DNA of 32,000 nt from Ignicoccus hospitalis KIN4/I (lineage in GTDB: Archaea; Thermoproteota; Thermoprotei_A; Sulfolobales; Ignicoccaceae). The stretch spans positions 1-32,000 of the forward strand of contig NC_009776.1 of NCBI RefSeq assembly GCF_000017945.1, in the 5' to 3' direction. The notes under the pieces are model-generated. The model saw only the letters and a list, made by a program, of their open reading frames with translations. It had not been told where the DNA came from and did not search any database. The translations under genes were made by a program, and so were the position numbers. Below, in pieces: positions 2,006-30,226 of this stretch; position 1 is the stretch's first letter, and each line of letters opens with the position of its first letter.

Positions 2006-2096
2006 TGGAGCCGCCGGCGGGATTTGAACCCGCGACCACCGGCTCTCTCGGAGGGCCGTACGAGGCCGGCGCTCTGCCGGGCTGAGCTACGGCGGC
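2006..2096 (-). tRNA. tRNA-Thr (anticodon CGU) with a 14-nt intron and encoded CCA
   Basis: Manual fold of the reverse complement. Acceptor GCCGCCG/CGGCGGC, D arm GCTC-AGCCCGGCA-GAGC, anticodon stem CCGGC/GCCGG, loop CUCGUA..A, variable loop TGGTC, T arm GCGGG-TTCAAAT-CCCGC, discriminator U, CCA. The 91 nt include the intron. Confidence 0.9.
2045..2058 (-). other. tRNA-Thr intron (CGGCCCUCCGAGAG) at the canonical 37/38 position
   Basis: Anticodon-loop CUCG pairs with intron CGAG to give a 4-bp central helix. It is flanked by two 3-nt bulges (UA|C and AG|A), which is a bulge-helix-bulge motif. Confidence 0.8.
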
Positions 2097-5703: not shown

Positions 5704-5713
5704 AATTATTTAA
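5704..5713 (-). promoter_or_regulatory. TATA-like box (TTAAATAATT) upstream of the 5291-5671 ORF
   Basis: A/T block overlapping the topoisomerase stop codon, 33-42 nt upstream of TTG 5671. Confidence 0.3.
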
Positions 5714-7683
5714 CCTTTAAACGTAGGTTCCGACAGTAACGCCTTTGCGACCTCCTTGGCCGCCGTCCCCGCTTGCTTTAAAGTCGTTACCTTCTTTAGG
5801 TACTCTTCAAAGCTTAACCCCAACCTCCTCCTCCAGACGGGGTACTTCGCGTAGAGCTCGTCCCTAGCTCTCTTGTGTACGACGCAGAGCCCGTCCTCCT
5901 CGGCCACCCTCCAACAAACCGCACACCTCCCCGGAGGCTCCATTTCACCCAGAGAGTAAGCAAGGTATTCGCCCACCTCTCTCATGTGAGGTTTATACTT
6001 GGCCAATATCATTCTCATGAACTTCTTAGCCTCCTCAACTATCTTTTCCTTACGTTCCACGCCCATCATAATCTTTTTCATATCTTCTTCGAACCTCCTA
6101 GTTAGTTCAACGCTAACTATTTCGGGAAAGAATTTGCTGAGCACCAACGCCACGCCTATCCCCAGGTCGGTCGCGTATACTTTCGAACCAACATTCTTTA
6201 GATACCCCCTCTTGAACAAGGTCTCCACTATTCTGGCCCTAGTCGCCTCGGTCCCTATTCCAACCCTTTCCATCCACTTGACTATCTTCGCCTTGGTGTA
6301 CCGCTCTGGGGGCTTTGTGTACTGCAACCTCCTGGTGCACTTGACTTGGAGGCTCTCCCCTTTAGTAAAGCTCGGCAAGCTCTTTTCTTGAGGAGCCGAG
6401 AAGGGATAGTATAGCGTCCAACCCTTCCACTTGACCCTCCTACCCACGGCTTTGAAGGTCTGACCGTTAACCTCTATCACCACTTTGGTTACTTCATAAA
6501 CGCTTTCGGAAGCGAGGGTTGCCATGAACCTCCTCACTATTAAGTCGTATACCTTCATGTGGTCTGGACTCAAGTTCTTCGGGGGCTTCCCCGTAGGGTA
6601 GATCGCCGGGTGGGCCGGGTCGTCCTTGGGTCCGTTGTTCGGAGAGAAACGTCCCCTGGTTTCCTTGAAGAGGGCCTTGGTCAAGGGGCGGTATTGAGGA
6701 ACTGAGGCAATGCCCTTTAGTATGTTCGCGTAATCCAAATCCTTGGGATATTTTTGGCTATTCGTCCTCGGGTAGGAAATGTAGGCGTCGAGGTAAAGCT
6801 CTTCGGCGATGCTCTGAGTCTTCGAAGGCGAGAAGCCGTAGAGCCTCGCGGCCTCCATTTGGAGGTCCGGCAAGTTGAAGGGGTGTGGAGGTGATAGCCT
6901 TTCGTCATTTACGATGACGTCAACTACTTTTCCGAGGCAGTTTGAAATAAAGTGGTCTGCCTCGTCCTTTGTTTCGAACTTAAGTGTGGGTTCGAGGGAG
7001 ACTCCCTTAGCGCTCAGTGAGACCGAAAAATAGGGCTCCGGGACGAAGCACTGGACGGCGAGCTCCCTCTCCACCACCTCCTTTAAGGTGGGGCTCTGAA
7101 CCCTTCCGGCTGACAAACTCTTGCTCTTGCCGGTGGCCACCCTGTAAGCGTGCATCAGAGCTCGAGAGACGTTGATCCCCCAGATCCAGTCCAGCTCATG
7201 TCTCGCCAACCCCGCGTTTATCATCTCCCAGTCGAGCGGCCTCAGGCTGTTCCACGCCCTACGTATCTCGTCCGGAGTTAAGGCGTGGAAAACCATCCTC
7301 TTGCTGCGGCGGGGGTCCCCGAACCTTTCTATTATTATATACCCTATAACGGAACCTTCCACGTCATAGTCACACGCGTTAACGTAGAGGCTCGAACCGG
7401 GACTGAGGCTGCTGATCAAAGCTATGTATTTCTTCGTGTGGGAGGCTCCCTTCTCGATTTCGTAAAGAGGACGCCATTCGTAGTCGAAGACGGGGAAGCC
7501 CTTGCCCAGAGGGGCTAGGCCGAACAGGTGTCCGGCCGCCGGTACCACGACTATCTTCTTGCCGTTTGTTAGTTCCCAATAAGGGACGCCATATTTCCTT
7601 TTGACTATAGGTTTGCCGAGAGCGTTCGCTATTTTCTCGGCCGCCTTAGGCTTCTCTGCGATTACTAGTATATGGCCTTTCAT
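5710..7683 (-). CDS. topA: DNA topoisomerase, type IA (archaeal Topo III / TopA-like)
   Basis: 657-aa ORF. TOPRIM N-terminus (ILVIAEKPKAAEKIA, acidic DYDVEGS), catalytic-Tyr motif YISYPRTNS, and a C-terminal Cys/His zinc-ribbon-like CAVCWRVAEEDGLCVVH. Confidence 0.95.
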   Translation of the reverse strand: MKGHILVIAEKPKAAEKIANALGKPIVKRKYGVPYWELTNGKKIVVVPAAGHLFGLAPLGKGFPVFDYEWRPLYEIEKGASHTKKYIALISSLSPGSSLYVNACDYDVEGSVIGYIIIERFGDPRRSKRMVFHALTPDEIRRAWNSLRPLDWEMINAGLARHELDWIWGINVSRALMHAYRVATGKSKSLSAGRVQSPTLKEVVERELAVQCFVPEPYFSVSLSAKGVSLEPTLKFETKDEADHFISNCLGKVVDVIVNDERLSPPHPFNLPDLQMEAARLYGFSPSKTQSIAEELYLDAYISYPRTNSQKYPKDLDYANILKGIASVPQYRPLTKALFKETRGRFSPNNGPKDDPAHPAIYPTGKPPKNLSPDHMKVYDLIVRRFMATLASESVYEVTKVVIEVNGQTFKAVGRRVKWKGWTLYYPFSAPQEKSLPSFTKGESLQVKCTRRLQYTKPPERYTKAKIVKWMERVGIGTEATRARIVETLFKRGYLKNVGSKVYATDLGIGVALVLSKFFPEIVSVELTRRFEEDMKKIMMGVERKEKIVEEAKKFMRMILAKYKPHMREVGEYLAYSLGEMEPPGRCAVCWRVAEEDGLCVVHKRARDELYAKYPVWRRRLGLSFEEYLKKVTTLKQAGTAAKEVAKALLSEPTFKG

Positions 7684-8557: not shown

Positions 8558-10516
8558 TCATATGTCGTTCTCCACGAAGACAATACTGTCCCTGATGTTA
8601 GGCGTGTATATCTTCATTCCCCTGGCCACCGTCCTGCTGAGGACCCTAGCTAGGCCCTCTATCCTGCTGGGCTCGCCGTGGTTTAGTATTATATTCTTGG
8701 GCCGCGGGGTTACCGACTTGACCCAGTTTATCAGCTCAGAACGGCTGCTGTGTCCCGAGAAGCCCTCTACCGAGAACACGTGACTCCTAACTTCTAGTTG
8801 GTAGAGCTTGGACTTGCCGTCCTCGTTGATTGCTATCTCGACTCTGTCGGCGCCCTCCTTCAACGTTCGGCCCAAGGTGCCGGCAGCTTGGTAAGCGACG
8901 AACACTATAGAGTTCTTGGGGTCCGGCGCGAGCTTCCGGAAGTACTCTAAGGACGGACCTCCCGTCAACATGCCGGAAGTAGCTAGTATCACTCCCGGTT
9001 CGGACTCCAGTACCTCCTCCCTCGATATGCCGCCCTCTATCGAAACGGACTCCACCTTGTGGACGAAGTCCGCTAGGAAGGGGTTCTCGCCTTTGATTAT
9101 TCTCTCCTTAACGCTTTTCGCCAGCCACTCCGGGTAGGCCGCGTGTATGGCTGTAGCCTCGTACACCATGCCGTCTAGGTATATAGGCACCGCACCTCCT
9201 TCCGGACTCTTGATCAGCTTGTTCTGAACGGCGTCAACCAGCAACAGCAGTATCTCTTGGGCCCTCCCCACTGCGAGCACGGGGATGAGTACGAAGCCTC
9301 CCTTCTCTATTGTTTTGTTTATTATATCTATGAGTAGCCTTTCTGCGAGCTCCCTCGGGGGGAGGTCTTGTGTCCCGTAGGTACTCTCCATTATTACGGC
9401 CTCTACCCTGGGGAATTGAGTGTTAGCCTTGTCTAAGAGTCTTGTGTAGCCATACTTGAAATCACCAGTGTAAACTAAGTTGAACAGCCCCTCGCCTACG
9501 TGGAGGTGCGCCATAGCGCTTCCCAAGATGTGCCCGGCGTTGTAGAAGGTCAACTTAATGTCCGGAGCTACGTCAGTTACCTCTCCGTAGTTCAAAGCGA
9601 TCGTTCGGAGCAACATGCTGTTGATGTCGCTCTCAGTATAGGGGACCGGCTTCCCTTCTTTCCGAGCTACCTCAATGTAGTCCTTCTGTACTAAGTACAT
9701 TAGGTCCCTAGTGGGCTGGGTGACGTAGACCGGCCCCCTATAACCGTACTTGTAGAGCCACGGAACGAGTCCGCAGTGGTCCAAGTGGGCGTGGGTGACT
9801 ATTACCGCGTCTAACTCATCTATGGGGACCTCCTCGACCTTCGGGAAGTGCTTCTGAGGGTCGTAAGAACCCACGTTGGCGCCGAAGTCCAACAGTACCT
9901 TGGATTCTTTCGTTTCTAGCAATATAGCCGAACGACCGACCTCTTTGAACGCCCCTAATGCAGTTATCCTAACATAATTGGTCTTGAACAAGAGGGGTCT
10001 GTGAATCCTGTTTCCTATTTCTAGCAGAGCTTCAAGTCGACGCTTTGTGTTCTCTCGATAGAATGCGCGAATCGTACTGATCACGTTAGACTTCAGCGGG
10101 GGGTTCCGCATGACTACGGGCTTCCAGCCCGTCGCGGTGAGGATTTTCCTAAGCCTGTGACCTCCCTTGCCCACCACGTACCCGGGTTTGTTGGTTATTA
10201 TGATCACTTCGCCGGTGGAAGGCTCGAACTGAAGCTCGACGATCTCGCCGCCCTCCCCGACTATCTTGTTTATCAGCTCGGCAGCCTCTTTCCTAGGCTT
10301 GCGTGCGCTCTCGTCGGGCTTAACTACTATCTTTTTGCGCACCGCCCTCGCGACCTTCCTAATCATTTCTGGATCTTCGTAGACAGGGAGCAGGTTCTTA
10401 GCATAGACCACCACCTCCGGACCTTCGTACTCTATCTTTACGATCTCAAGTTCCTTAGGTAATAGTGACTTTATCTTATCGGCCAAGTTTACCAGGTTGT
10501 CGTCGACCTTACTCAT
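8558..10516 (-). CDS. fttA: aCPSF1 (KH + metallo-beta-lactamase + beta-CASP ribonuclease; archaeal termination factor FttA)
   Basis: 652-aa ORF. N-terminal KH-like region (GYVVGKGGHRLRKI), MBL motif VTHAHLDHCG, and a beta-CASP C-terminal half ending in HGEP. Confidence 0.93.
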   Translation of the reverse strand: MSKVDDNLVNLADKIKSLLPKELEIVKIEYEGPEVVVYAKNLLPVYEDPEMIRKVARAVRKKIVVKPDESARKPRKEAAELINKIVGEGGEIVELQFEPSTGEVIIITNKPGYVVGKGGHRLRKILTATGWKPVVMRNPPLKSNVISTIRAFYRENTKRRLEALLEIGNRIHRPLLFKTNYVRITALGAFKEVGRSAILLETKESKVLLDFGANVGSYDPQKHFPKVEEVPIDELDAVIVTHAHLDHCGLVPWLYKYGYRGPVYVTQPTRDLMYLVQKDYIEVARKEGKPVPYTESDINSMLLRTIALNYGEVTDVAPDIKLTFYNAGHILGSAMAHLHVGEGLFNLVYTGDFKYGYTRLLDKANTQFPRVEAVIMESTYGTQDLPPRELAERLLIDIINKTIEKGGFVLIPVLAVGRAQEILLLLVDAVQNKLIKSPEGGAVPIYLDGMVYEATAIHAAYPEWLAKSVKERIIKGENPFLADFVHKVESVSIEGGISREEVLESEPGVILATSGMLTGGPSLEYFRKLAPDPKNSIVFVAYQAAGTLGRTLKEGADRVEIAINEDGKSKLYQLEVRSHVFSVEGFSGHSSRSELINWVKSVTPRPKNIILNHGEPSRIEGLARVLSRTVARGMKIYTPNIRDSIVFVENDI

Positions 10517-24978: not shown

Positions 24979-26793
24979 TTGGAAAGGAAAATCTTGTTTA
25001 TAGACCTTTCTAGAACTAGGATAGATGAAGTAGAGGTTGACGATTACCTTCATACTAGATTCCTAGGAGGGAAGGGTTTCTGTACTTACTTTATATATAA
25101 GTACGCGCAGCCTTGTGCAGACCCCTACGGGCCTCGAAACGTAGCTGTGATCGCCGCCGGCGCGCTGGCCGGCTACGCGCCGGCGTCCGGGAAGACTTGC
25201 TTCGGTGCCGTGAGTCCTCTCACCGGACTGATTCACGACTCGTACGCGGGAGAGGTGTTAGGCCCCAAGCTCCGGATGGCCGGCTACGATGCAATAGTTA
25301 TCACTGGGAAGTCCGAAGAGCCAGTTTACATCTACGTAACTGAGGAGGGGACCGAGATCCTAAGTGCCGACGACATATGGGGTCATAGCACCTCAAAGGC
25401 GACGAAGGTACTCAAGGAGAGACACGGAAAGAAGAGCAGCGTAGCCGTCGTGGGACCCGCCGCCGAGAACAAGGTTAGGTACGCCTCGGTGATAGTGGAC
25501 TACCACCGGGCCGCGGGGCGGGGAGGGATAGGGGCCATCTGGGCGAGCAAAGGCTTGAAGGCTGTTGTAGTCAAGGCAGCCAAGCCCCTCCCAGAGCCGG
25601 CGCTGGGGAGGAAGGCGTGGAGGGAAGTGGCCACCAAGCTATACAAGAAGTTCCAAGCGTTGGGCTCCAGCTTCTCTAGGTACGGAACAAACAACGGCTT
25701 GGTGACTGCCGACAAGTTAGGTATGGCCCCGCACTACAACTTCAAGTACCCTCACCTGGGGGACGTAGGCGAGCTTAAGGGCGAGAACGTCGTAAAGCTC
25801 GCGAAGGGTCCTCACGAAGTAGAGGACCAGTCCGTCTTCGGTTACATGTGCCCCATAAAGTGTTCAAAAGTGGTAAAGGATGAAGGTATCAAAAGCGAGT
25901 ACGAACACTTGGGCATGTTGGGCGCAGCAGACGGGATATACAAGCTAATGGACGTTCTCAAAGCGATCAAAATAGTGAACGATCTCGGCTTAGATAGCAT
26001 ATCCTCTGGCAACGTAATAGGTTGGACCGCAGAGAGCGAGGAGAAGGGGTTGCTCAACGGCGTAATGAAGTGGGGAGACGGCGAGAAGCAAAGAAAGCTG
26101 CTAGAGGAAATAGCGTACAGAAAGGGCATAGGCGCAGTCCTCGCGGAGGGGGTCAAGAGGGCTTCCGAAATACTGGGCTTCGGGAAGGAGTGGGCAGTCC
26201 ACGTCAAAGGGTTGGAGGCCCCCGCTTGGGACCCCAGGGGACTGTTGGGCTTCGGGCTGAGCTACGCCACTGCAGACGTGGGGGCCAGCCACTTGAGAGG
26301 CTGGCCCCGCCCCCATAGACCTCCCACGGACAGCGCGCTAAAGGCGCTTGACTCCTTATTGTACGACAGGGACAAGACCAGCGTAGCTGATCACATGGGT
26401 ACGTGCGTGTTCTTGGCTTACGACTTTCCGGACTGGAGCGAGCTGTTGAAGGTAGTATACGGCTTGGATTACGACACGGAGGAGCTTAGGAAGCTCTCCC
26501 AAAGGACGGAGAGCTTAGCGCGATTGTGGGCACTCAAGGTCGGATATACTAGCGACGACGACACCGTCCCGCCCCGCTGGATGGAGCCCGTGCCCAAGGG
26601 CCCCAACGCCGGCCTCAAAGCCTTCATCTCATGGGAAGACTTAGAGGTCTCTAAGAGGGAGTATTACAAGAGGAGGGGTTGGAGCCCTCGGGAAGGAGTT
26701 CCCCTCCCTTCCACCCTCAAGTCGCTAGACCTTCACTTCGCAGTGGAAGACGCCGAACTCCTCTTGAGAAAGCTAGAACCCGAGTATTACTAA
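24979..26793 (+). CDS. aor: Aldehyde:ferredoxin oxidoreductase family tungsten enzyme
   Basis: 604-aa ORF. ILFIDLSRTRIDEVEV N-terminal domain, ...YGTNNGL..., GLDSISSGN, GLEAPAWDPRG and DHMGTCVF, typical of the AOR/FOR family. TTG start. Confidence 0.9.
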   Translation: MERKILFIDLSRTRIDEVEVDDYLHTRFLGGKGFCTYFIYKYAQPCADPYGPRNVAVIAAGALAGYAPASGKTCFGAVSPLTGLIHDSYAGEVLGPKLRMAGYDAIVITGKSEEPVYIYVTEEGTEILSADDIWGHSTSKATKVLKERHGKKSSVAVVGPAAENKVRYASVIVDYHRAAGRGGIGAIWASKGLKAVVVKAAKPLPEPALGRKAWREVATKLYKKFQALGSSFSRYGTNNGLVTADKLGMAPHYNFKYPHLGDVGELKGENVVKLAKGPHEVEDQSVFGYMCPIKCSKVVKDEGIKSEYEHLGMLGAADGIYKLMDVLKAIKIVNDLGLDSISSGNVIGWTAESEEKGLLNGVMKWGDGEKQRKLLEEIAYRKGIGAVLAEGVKRASEILGFGKEWAVHVKGLEAPAWDPRGLLGFGLSYATADVGASHLRGWPRPHRPPTDSALKALDSLLYDRDKTSVADHMGTCVFLAYDFPDWSELLKVVYGLDYDTEELRKLSQRTESLARLWALKVGYTSDDDTVPPRWMEPVPKGPNAGLKAFISWEDLEVSKREYYKRRGWSPREGVPLPSTLKSLDLHFAVEDAELLLRKLEPEYY

Positions 26794-26829
26794 CCCCTAC
26801 CCTTCCACTGGAACCCACTCTTTTCCCAC
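26787..26829. repeat. Left arm of a perfect 43-bp inverted repeat; ORB-like box (reverse orientation)
   Basis: TTACTAACCCCTACCCTTCCACTGGAACCCACTCTTTTCCCAC is the exact reverse complement of 27224-27266, compared base by base. It includes the aor stop codon (26791-26793). Confidence 0.9.
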
Positions 26830-27223
26830 AACACGCTTTCGCGTAAGAAGCACGCCCTCGACCTCCCTCAAGTTATACGCACGTGTAAAGGAGGGGTAGT
26901 TTCTTCTGGAGAAGGAACGAGCACCCCTCCCCCTCTCCCGCGCTACTCTAAACTTCAACCATCACTCTTGTAAAATTTTTCATAATCTATTAGATAGAAA
27001 TCAGTCACGTTTTATTACGTTTCTCCTTGATTTTGCCCTATAAGGATCGATGCTTAGATGCAATAGAAATACACTATTTTGTTACAAACTATGTGAATAG
27101 ATTATTAGACAAAACTGTTGTGTTGTTTTCAGTAAGAGTGATTTTCCAGAGGAAGCACCGGGGGAAGTTCTCTCCACTAAGCACCGGAGTATCACGGAAA
27201 AAGAGGTTTGGAGAAAAACTTAG

Positions 27224-27266
27224 GTGGGAAAAGAGTGGGTTCCAGTGGAAGGGTAGGGGTTAGTAA
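27224..27266. repeat. Right arm of the perfect 43-bp inverted repeat; ORB-like box
   Basis: GTGGGAAAAGAGTGGGTTCCAGTGGAAGGGTAGGGGTTAGTAA. Dyad TTCCA-G-TGGAA at 27240-27250, followed by GGGTAGGGGT. Confidence 0.9.
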
Positions 27267-27332
27267 CACGGGATTGTAAGAATCGCTAATAAAGCGCGCG
27301 ATACGAGAAGTTAATGACGGGGGACCGAAGTT

Positions 27333-27749
27333 TTGGCTCCTGAAGACGAAGTCCGGGAAGAGGTGGTGGAGGAGACTCACAAGAAAGTGATGGAGGAGCT
27401 TGAAAAAATATACGAAGACGAAGAGATAGAAGTGTTCGCGGCCCCGGACGACAGCGAACTGGAAAAATTATTACTGGAAATTCTCAAGGAGAAGCCGATG
27501 AAGTTCAAAGAACTGAAGGAGGTGTTCTCGGCAACGGCCGGTGAGGACCGGCTCAGGAGGTCGTTGATGAAACTCTTGGAAGAGGGACGCATAAGGGAGT
27601 TGGAAGATGGCACTTATACAGCGATCGACGTAGAGGATATATACTCCACGGTAGAGGACGAGGAACTCATAGAAGACGTGTTGGAAAACGTGGAGGGCGA
27701 GGAAGAGGAGGAAGAACTAGAGGAGTTAGAGTTCGACGAGGAATTCTAA
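27333..27749 (+). CDS. Small, highly acidic protein with a winged-helix-like core
   Basis: 138-aa ORF with 53 D/E residues (38%). The core KLLLEILKEKPMKFKELKEVFSATAGEDRLRRSLMKLLEEGRIRELEDGTYTA resembles a wHTH. The C-terminal tail is acidic (EEEEEELEELEFDEEF). TTG start; ATG at 27390 is an alternative. Confidence 0.55.
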   Translation: MAPEDEVREEVVEETHKKVMEELEKIYEDEEIEVFAAPDDSELEKLLLEILKEKPMKFKELKEVFSATAGEDRLRRSLMKLLEEGRIRELEDGTYTAIDVEDIYSTVEDEELIEDVLENVEGEEEEEELEELEFDEEF

Positions 27750-30098: not shown

Positions 30099-30226
30099 GG
30101 CCCGGTCCCAGCACGGGGCGGCTGCGGCGCCTCTCGGACGCCACTGCCGGACCCCGCGCGACCGGCTTAACTTCCGGGTTCGAAATGGGTCCGGGTGTTG
30201 CCCGGTCGCTGTGGCCGGGCCGGGCC
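30099..30226 (-). rRNA. rrf: 5S ribosomal RNA (not linked to any 16S/23S in this window)
   Basis: The reverse complement reads GGCCCGGCCCGGCCACAGCGACCGGGCAACACCCGGACCCATTTCGAACCCGGAAGTTAAGCCGGTCGC...GTGCTGGGACCGGGCC. The loop C/helix III core (GGGCAACACCCGGAC-CAUUUCGAACCCGGAAGUUAAGCC) is near-identical to Sulfolobus 5S as I remember it. The 5' and 3' ends pair into a ~13-bp helix I. The ends are accurate to a few nt. Confidence 0.9.

Follow-up and report, generated by a model that had tools for sequence, protein, structure and literature searches.

Archaeal replication origins in which inverted Origin Recognition Boxes (ORBs) flank an A/T-rich duplex-unwinding element (DUE) have been described in Sulfolobus, Aeropyrum and Pyrococcus, and it is with these systems that we compare a 480-bp element (26787-27266) lying between two genes of Ignicoccus hospitalis KIN4/I. 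The DNA analysed, hereafter the window, is a whole stretch of 32,000 nucleotides (NCBI RefSeq assembly GCF_000017945.1, contig NC_009776.1, positions 1 to 32,000 of the forward strand), and, judging from its sequence, the element is probably a chromosomal replication origin of I. hospitalis, belonging to the conserved crenarchaeal oriC1 type.

In oriC1 of Sulfolobus islandicus, as represented by oligonucleotide P23 (Table S1 of Dhanaraju et al. 2025), ACACCCC-TTCGG-TTCCATTGGAG precedes the DUE and CTCCAAATGAA-ATACT-GGGGTAGG follows it, and in ORB orientation the two boxes read CTCCAATGGAA-CCGAA-GGGGT and CTCCAAATGAA-ATACT-GGGGT (PMC12141716). Linker-scan mutation of either box abolished oriC1 activity in vivo, and an 11-bp motif in the DUE, ucm, is essential for this origin and is bound by the nucleoid protein UBP (12-bp probe ATTATACAAAAG); the Sulfolobales conserve ucm, both Aeropyrum origins contain it, and the Desulfurococcales are reported to have the ubp gene (PMC12141716). 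The oriC1 of Aeropyrum pernix carries four Orc1-1 boxes, two on each side of an A/T-rich region, and this region becomes nuclease-sensitive upon Orc1 binding (PMC8287685), and neither A. pernix cdc6 gene adjoins its origins (PMC5333045). In Pyrococcus furiosus, ORB1 binds Cdc6/Orc1 in gel shifts (PMC1904270).

The I. hospitalis element is delimited by an inverted repeat whose 46-nt arms (26784-26829 and 27224-27269) are 98% complementary, with one mismatch. Within this repeat, 26787-26829 and 27224-27266 are complementary at 43 of 43 positions with 394 nt between the arms, and the coordinates recovered are those given in a preliminary description of this DNA. The 21-mer TTCCAGTGGAAGGGTAGGGGT occurs in the window at the two arm sites only, 0 occurrences being expected from 100 shuffles. 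The same description had counted by hand about 31% G+C at 26941-27140, between flanking genes of about half G+C, and recomputation agrees on both points: the G+C content is 0.31 in that segment and 0.529 in the whole window, as compared with 0.563 in the aldehyde:ferredoxin oxidoreductase (AOR) gene on the left and 0.494 in the downstream gene. The 14 lowest-G+C 200-nt intervals of the 32 kb all lie within the element. The left arm overlaps the final codons and the stop codon of the AOR gene (24979-26793), while 64 nt separate the end of the right arm from the start of an open reading frame (ORF) of 138 codons (27333-27749). The earlier statement that there is no credible ORF between the arms has to be qualified: two short ORFs overlap the element (26797-26958, 53 aa, and 27027-27263, 78 aa), each entering an arm, but both are unsupported: neither has a Pfam match, and conservation of the spacer between species is poor.

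An assembly artefact is excluded because an ENA metagenome contig from an independent megahit assembly (L008) carries the element intact, in an exact 701-bp match that spans the whole of it. Logan k-mer contigs (L002-L006, L009), on the other hand, all end in the middle of the TTCCAGTGGAA dyad within an arm, as is to be expected of a single inverted repeat that exceeds k. Here a single inverted repeat suffices to fragment unitig assemblies, while the megahit contig reads through.

Each arm contains an ORB of the form TCCAGTGGAA, 5 nt, GGGGT. As had been claimed, both arms show the dyad TTCCA-G-TGGAA with GGGTAGGGGT after it, and the G-strings point away from the A/T-rich core. Searching the window with the pattern TCCA-N1-3-GGAA-N0-14-GGGG returned three matches in 32 kb, all of them within the 480 bp (the two arms and 27144-27164), and a scan for dyads with one mismatch added an inner-left mini-ORB in the same interval. 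The earlier inventory of boxes was thus correct for the two outer ORBs and incomplete for the remainder, having missed the third full ORB at 27144-27164, the mini-ORB at about 26897-26913 and two ucm-like motifs. The features of the element are, from left to right:

26784..26829, minus strand: left outer arm with ORB-L, core 26793-26818, minus strand GTGGG-TTCCAGTGGAA-GGGTA-GGGGT; the G-string points leftward, away from the A/T-rich core
26897..26913 (approximate), minus strand: inner-left mini-ORB, which reads TTCTCCAGAAGAAAC on this strand and differs from TCCANNGGAA at one position; same orientation as the left arm
26936..27140, no strand: A/T-rich core, candidate DUE, G+C 0.32; contains the lowest-G+C 200 nt of the window
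26965..26976, minus strand: ucm-like 12-mer, plus strand CTCTTGTAAAAT, matching the reverse complement of the S. islandicus ucm probe at 10/12 positions
27104..27115, plus strand: second ucm-like 12-mer, ATTAGACAAAAC, 10/12; inverted relative to the copy at 26965-26976
27144..27164, plus strand: inner-right full ORB, T-TCCAGAGGAA-GCACC-GGGGG (dyad, 5-nt gap, G-string); oriented as in the right outer arm
27224..27269, plus strand: right outer arm with ORB-R, core 27235-27260, GTGGG-TTCCAGTGGAA-GGGTA-GGGGT; the G-string points rightward, away from the A/T-rich core

The order is therefore outer-left, inner-left, A/T-rich core, inner-right and outer-right, with minus-strand boxes on the left and plus-strand boxes on the right; the outer boxes are ~400 bp and the inner boxes ~230 bp apart. 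A TCCA-N2-GGAA dyad followed by a G-string, the grammar of ORBs that have been footprinted or gel-shifted, is found in the outer boxes and in the inner-right box. The two ucm-like 12-mers are the only matches with at most two mismatches in the 32-kb window, and both fall inside the A/T-rich core.

When the locus is set beside oriC1 of S. islandicus and S. solfataricus, the composition of the boxes (dyad, 5 nt, GGGGT) and the outward direction of the G-strings from the DUE are the same. As in the Sulfolobus arrangement of ORB3, DUE with ucm, and ORB2, an A/T-rich DUE would lie between mirror ORBs, and the ucm occurs as an inverted pair in both. In Sulfolobus, however, orc1-1 is immediately adjacent and ORB3 and ORB2 are ~130 bp apart, whereas in I. 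hospitalis the outer and inner boxes lie at the wider spacings given above, there is no initiator gene nearby, and the ucm match is 10/12 rather than exact. The likeness to oriC1 (Ori1) of A. pernix, which belongs to the same order as Ignicoccus (Desulfurococcales) and was compared by its published description, extends to the four-box layout, the A/T-rich centre, the presence of ucm and the lack of an adjacent cdc6/orc1 gene. The A. pernix region differs in spanning ~323 bp as against 480 bp here, and the outer boxes of I. hospitalis are embedded in a perfect 43-nt inverted repeat. With oriC of Pyrococcus abyssi and P. furiosus (34-bp ORB1 and ORB2, 13-bp mini-ORBs) the locus shares inverted long ORBs around A/T-rich DNA and additional mini-ORBs, and the 13-nt core of P. 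furiosus ORB1, GGTTCCAGTGGAA, is identical in the I. hospitalis arms (PMC1904270). On the other hand, the gap between dyad and G-string in Pyrococcus is 10 nt (ATGAAACTCT) as opposed to 5 nt here, the Pyrococcus cdc6/orc1 gene is adjacent to the origin, and Pyrococcus has many more mini-ORBs.

Related loci were obtained through the gene family of the winged-helix protein encoded by the 138-codon ORF, and one further locus (L097) was added by means of a degenerate arm pattern. The spacer between the AOR and winged-helix genes carries the element in each of the following:

I. hospitalis: the window
I. islandicus: L091
I. pacificus: L011
metagenome-assembled genomes (MAGs) or metagenome contigs: L010, L090, L093 and L097

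The outer inverted box pair, the A/T-rich spacer and the inner boxes are all kept between the two genes in 7/7 genomes, among which the neighbouring protein differs by up to ~40%. A comparison of the spacer downstream of the AOR gene in relatives had been proposed in the preliminary description, and its outcome is the same architecture at a syntenic site in seven genomes. From 13 outer boxes we derive the consensus GTGGG-aT.CA.aGGAA-N5-GGGG-ttaGTAAT, in which only ORB consensus positions are invariant. That these positions alone are invariant at one syntenic site argues against a miniature inverted-repeat transposable element (MITE), an RNA stem and an assembly artefact alike.

Identity between the two arms of one genome is 0.95-1.00 in four genomes (the window, L010, L097 and L091), and the between-genome mean is 0.70. 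In I. pacificus and L093 the within-genome identity is 0.64 and 0.72, respectively, and the surviving positions are those of the ORB consensus. Given that the arms of these two genomes have diverged and yet keep their ORB positions, it is the protein-binding motif that is conserved and not the base pairing. Where perfect repeats are seen, homogenisation between the arms within a genome is their most likely cause, and the concerted evolution of the arms in some lineages suggests intermittent gene conversion between them.

The interior of the spacer is less constrained. Across six genomes the alignment of the element has a mean column identity of 52%, with most of the invariant columns within the arms, and the sole internal block that aligns across all six spacers (GTTTC..TCTGGA) is the one in which the inner-left mini-ORB sits; its invariant columns, TTTC, T and A, fall at positions 131-141 of the first aligned sequence. 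Inner boxes recur among the relatives, one case being TTCCAGAGGAAAC on the left inner side in I. pacificus and L093. The six orthologous spacers contain 8 ucm-like matches, at least one in each, as compared with 0.60 expected from composition-matched shuffles; the best are 11/12 in I. pacificus, 11/12 in I. islandicus and 10/12 in L093, and the L097 spacer contains GTTTTGTATAAT, found by eye.

The reading of the element as an archaeal origin of the ORB-DUE-ORB kind, first put forward in the preliminary description, is supported by the agreement of box geometry, polarity, low-G+C core, ucm-like motifs and seven-genome synteny, all of them properties read from DNA sequence. Features expected of such an origin that are present here comprise inverted ORBs flanking an A/T-rich core with a defined polarity, a cluster of boxes that are otherwise rare, a ucm in the candidate DUE, if an imperfect one, and syntenic conservation; an adjacent orc1/cdc6 or whiP gene is absent. 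We infer the course of binding, unwinding and firing by analogy with the biochemistry of Sulfolobus and Aeropyrum. Monomers of an Orc1-1-type initiator, made in trans from a distant gene, would bind the four ORB and mini-ORB boxes with fixed polarity, the boxes standing two per side in mirror orientation with their G-strings distal. The bound initiators would then recruit the MCM helicase onto the ~200-bp A/T-rich core between the inner boxes, a UBP-like nucleoid protein at the ucm-like core motifs may assist activation, and replication forks would then depart bidirectionally.

Several observations weigh against this reading. The larger ORFs were scanned against Pfam and the called genes were covered by precomputed Pfam hits; neither source gave an Orc1/Cdc6, MCM or Cdt1/WhiP-like gene in the window or in positions 504-48206 of the MAG contig DUJT01000013.1, which contains the window, and the initiator-free span thus runs from ~37 kb upstream to ~11 kb downstream of the element. 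This bears out over a wider region the earlier remark that the window has no such gene, and it takes away a clue that ordinarily supports an origin, albeit one that is dispensable, to judge from A. pernix. An orc1/cdc6 or whiP gene beside an archaeal origin is typical, not universal. The GC skew across the 32-kb window does not turn at the locus and for the most part tracks the strand of the genes, the inner-left mini-ORB has no G-string, and the ucm-like matches in I. hospitalis reach 10/12 only. To these is to be added the ORB/mini-ORB cluster in the Pyrococcus dp1 gene, which binds Cdc6/Orc1 and for which a role in initiation has been suggested, no separate origin having been mapped there (PMC1904270).

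That last precedent leads to the alternative that survives best, namely that the cluster is ORB-like, or even bound by Orc1, and is not an active origin: it might be an origin that lies dormant, or else a site, regulatory or architectural in role, at which an Orc1 paralogue or another winged-helix factor binds the boxes and controls the flanking genes. Sulfolobus Orc1-2 is described as a non-initiator regulator of the DNA-damage response (PMC9738581), dormant origins are known in haloarchaea (PMC4595724), and a conserved winged-helix gene follows directly downstream of the element. We nevertheless consider this alternative unlikely. Mirror ORBs with distal G-strings, a ~200-bp core that is the most A/T-rich of the window and ucm-like motifs exceed what an operator needs, and the published analysis of I. 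hospitalis already expects an origin unlinked to orc1/cdc6 (PMC2614490). A TATA-like sequence, TAATAAAG, at 27287-27294, outside the right arm and ~40 nt before the start of the 138-codon ORF, is also present in L090 and probably serves as that gene's TATA box; since this conserved sequence lies outside the right arm, the likely promoter of the downstream gene needs no part of the element.

A MITE or other mobile-element remnant, with the arms as terminal inverted repeats and the spacer as the body of the element, is hardly to be credited. Such a remnant would indeed look like this, a long and perfect inverted repeat enclosing a short body that is non-coding and A/T-rich, and the Logan k-mer assemblies break inside the arms, as they would at repeats. 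These breaks are explained, however, by a single inverted repeat longer than k, the megahit contig spanning the element; the same syntenic spacer carries the element in all seven genomes, so that it is present at that site in every relative examined; in I. pacificus and L093 arm identity has fallen to 64-72%, with only the ORB consensus positions kept; and there is no direct-repeat target-site duplication at the arm ends. Further copies were likewise absent. Exact searches gave 0 matches to the 43-mer in 185,579 species genomes (a set apparently without the I. hospitalis reference: the genome_contigs scans brought up I. pacificus but neither the I. hospitalis nor the I. islandicus reference genome) and 0 matches to a 24-mer in JGI metagenomes. 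The degenerate arm pattern retrieved from the JGI metagenomes only the one further orthologous locus mentioned above (L097), and nothing from viral contigs, and in ~950 kb of related DNA that had been fetched the degenerate outer-box pattern matched the orthologous spacers alone; built as it was from these very boxes, the pattern tests specificity and not sensitivity. Dispersed copies of the 480-bp element, which the preliminary description had named as a sign of a MITE rather than an origin, are therefore lacking in the window, the species genomes, the JGI metagenomes, the viral contigs and the fetched loci.

A structured non-coding RNA gene, its ends paired through the 43-nt arms as a closing or processing stem, is extremely improbable: the arms could form a 43-bp helix and both change together between species in 4/6 genomes, but the body has 31-42% G+C in a hyperthermophile and is barely alignable at the column identity given above, Rfam returned nothing at gathering thresholds and chance-level matches only at E up to 1, and I. 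pacificus and L093 lose arm complementarity while keeping the ORB positions, the opposite of what is expected of a stem.

The genes on either side of the putative origin are:

24979..26793, plus strand: AOR gene, left flank; a conserved synteny anchor, outside the putative origin
27333..27749, plus strand: gene for the 138-aa winged-helix protein, right flank; a synteny anchor within the Ignicoccus lineage

An AlphaFold model of the 138-aa protein (predicted local distance difference test score 67.7) combines a winged-helix domain with a helix at the N terminus and an acidic, disordered tail. The protein is 100% identical to an I. hospitalis protein at NCBI. It has no Pfam match, PDB sequence and profile searches gave chance-level hits only, and Foldseek searches with the model returned generic winged-helix matches only, with E above 0.02. 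Its family, which is unannotated, extends across the Desulfurococcales (Ignicoccus, Pyrodictium, Hyperthermus, Ignisphaera and Staphylothermus MAGs) and has the invariant motifs K-YED...AP..ELE...FS..AGEDRLR, and some genomes have two paralogues (L054/L065 and L029/L080, for instance).

It is conceivable that this protein is an origin factor of the Ignicoccus lineage, either a WhiP-like co-initiator or a regulator of firing, and in that event the locus would represent a new type of replicator-initiator pair and not an orphan Orc1-dependent origin; we regard the proposal as very doubtful. What ties the protein to the origin is adjacency within one genus. A search of 78 loci from more distant Desulfurococcales found no ORB-like inverted repeat beside their winged-helix gene, and in one locus (L095) the homologue abuts STT3 across a ~90 bp spacer. 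Since the linkage of gene and origin is confined to the Ignicoccus lineage, the case for the protein as an origin factor is weaker. A UBP was sought among the 110-aa and 79-aa proteins encoded downstream, with no significant PDB match.

Elsewhere in the window, a tRNA gene at 2006-2096 (minus strand, 91 nt) is reported by ARAGORN as 'tRNA-???' with a 4-nt anticodon call and scores 59 bits against the Rfam tRNA model; its product is probably an archaeal tRNA with an intron. A 5S rRNA gene standing alone (30110-30216, minus strand; Rfam 51 bits) lies ~3 kb downstream of the element. Genes for a type IA topoisomerase (Toprim and Topoisom_bac domains, 657 aa) and for an aCPSF1/FttA-type beta-CASP ribonuclease, at 5710-7683 and 8558-10516, respectively, both on the minus strand, are located 17-21 kb upstream of the element.

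Origins of the ORB-DUE-ORB kind and origins unlinked to orc1/cdc6 have both already been described, and the picture of archaeal initiation is unchanged by this locus. The I. hospitalis genome paper places the Orc1/Cdc6 genes away from a predicted origin, giving no coordinates and citing the ORB paper as its basis (PMC2614490). An unlinked initiator is accordingly not new, because it is known for A. pernix and stated in that paper, and the locus described here is quite possibly the one already predicted there; our search of the literature returned no paper mapping an Ignicoccus origin. If the element is an origin, as we think probable, the present analysis would supply a precise location and a box map for a replication origin of I. 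hospitalis, the host of Nanoarchaeum equitans. It would also provide a seven-genome footprint of a Desulfurococcales origin, in which the constrained ORB positions are GTGGG, CA, GGAA and GGGG, and would indicate that a ucm-like motif accompanies ORBs beyond the Sulfolobales and Aeropyrum.

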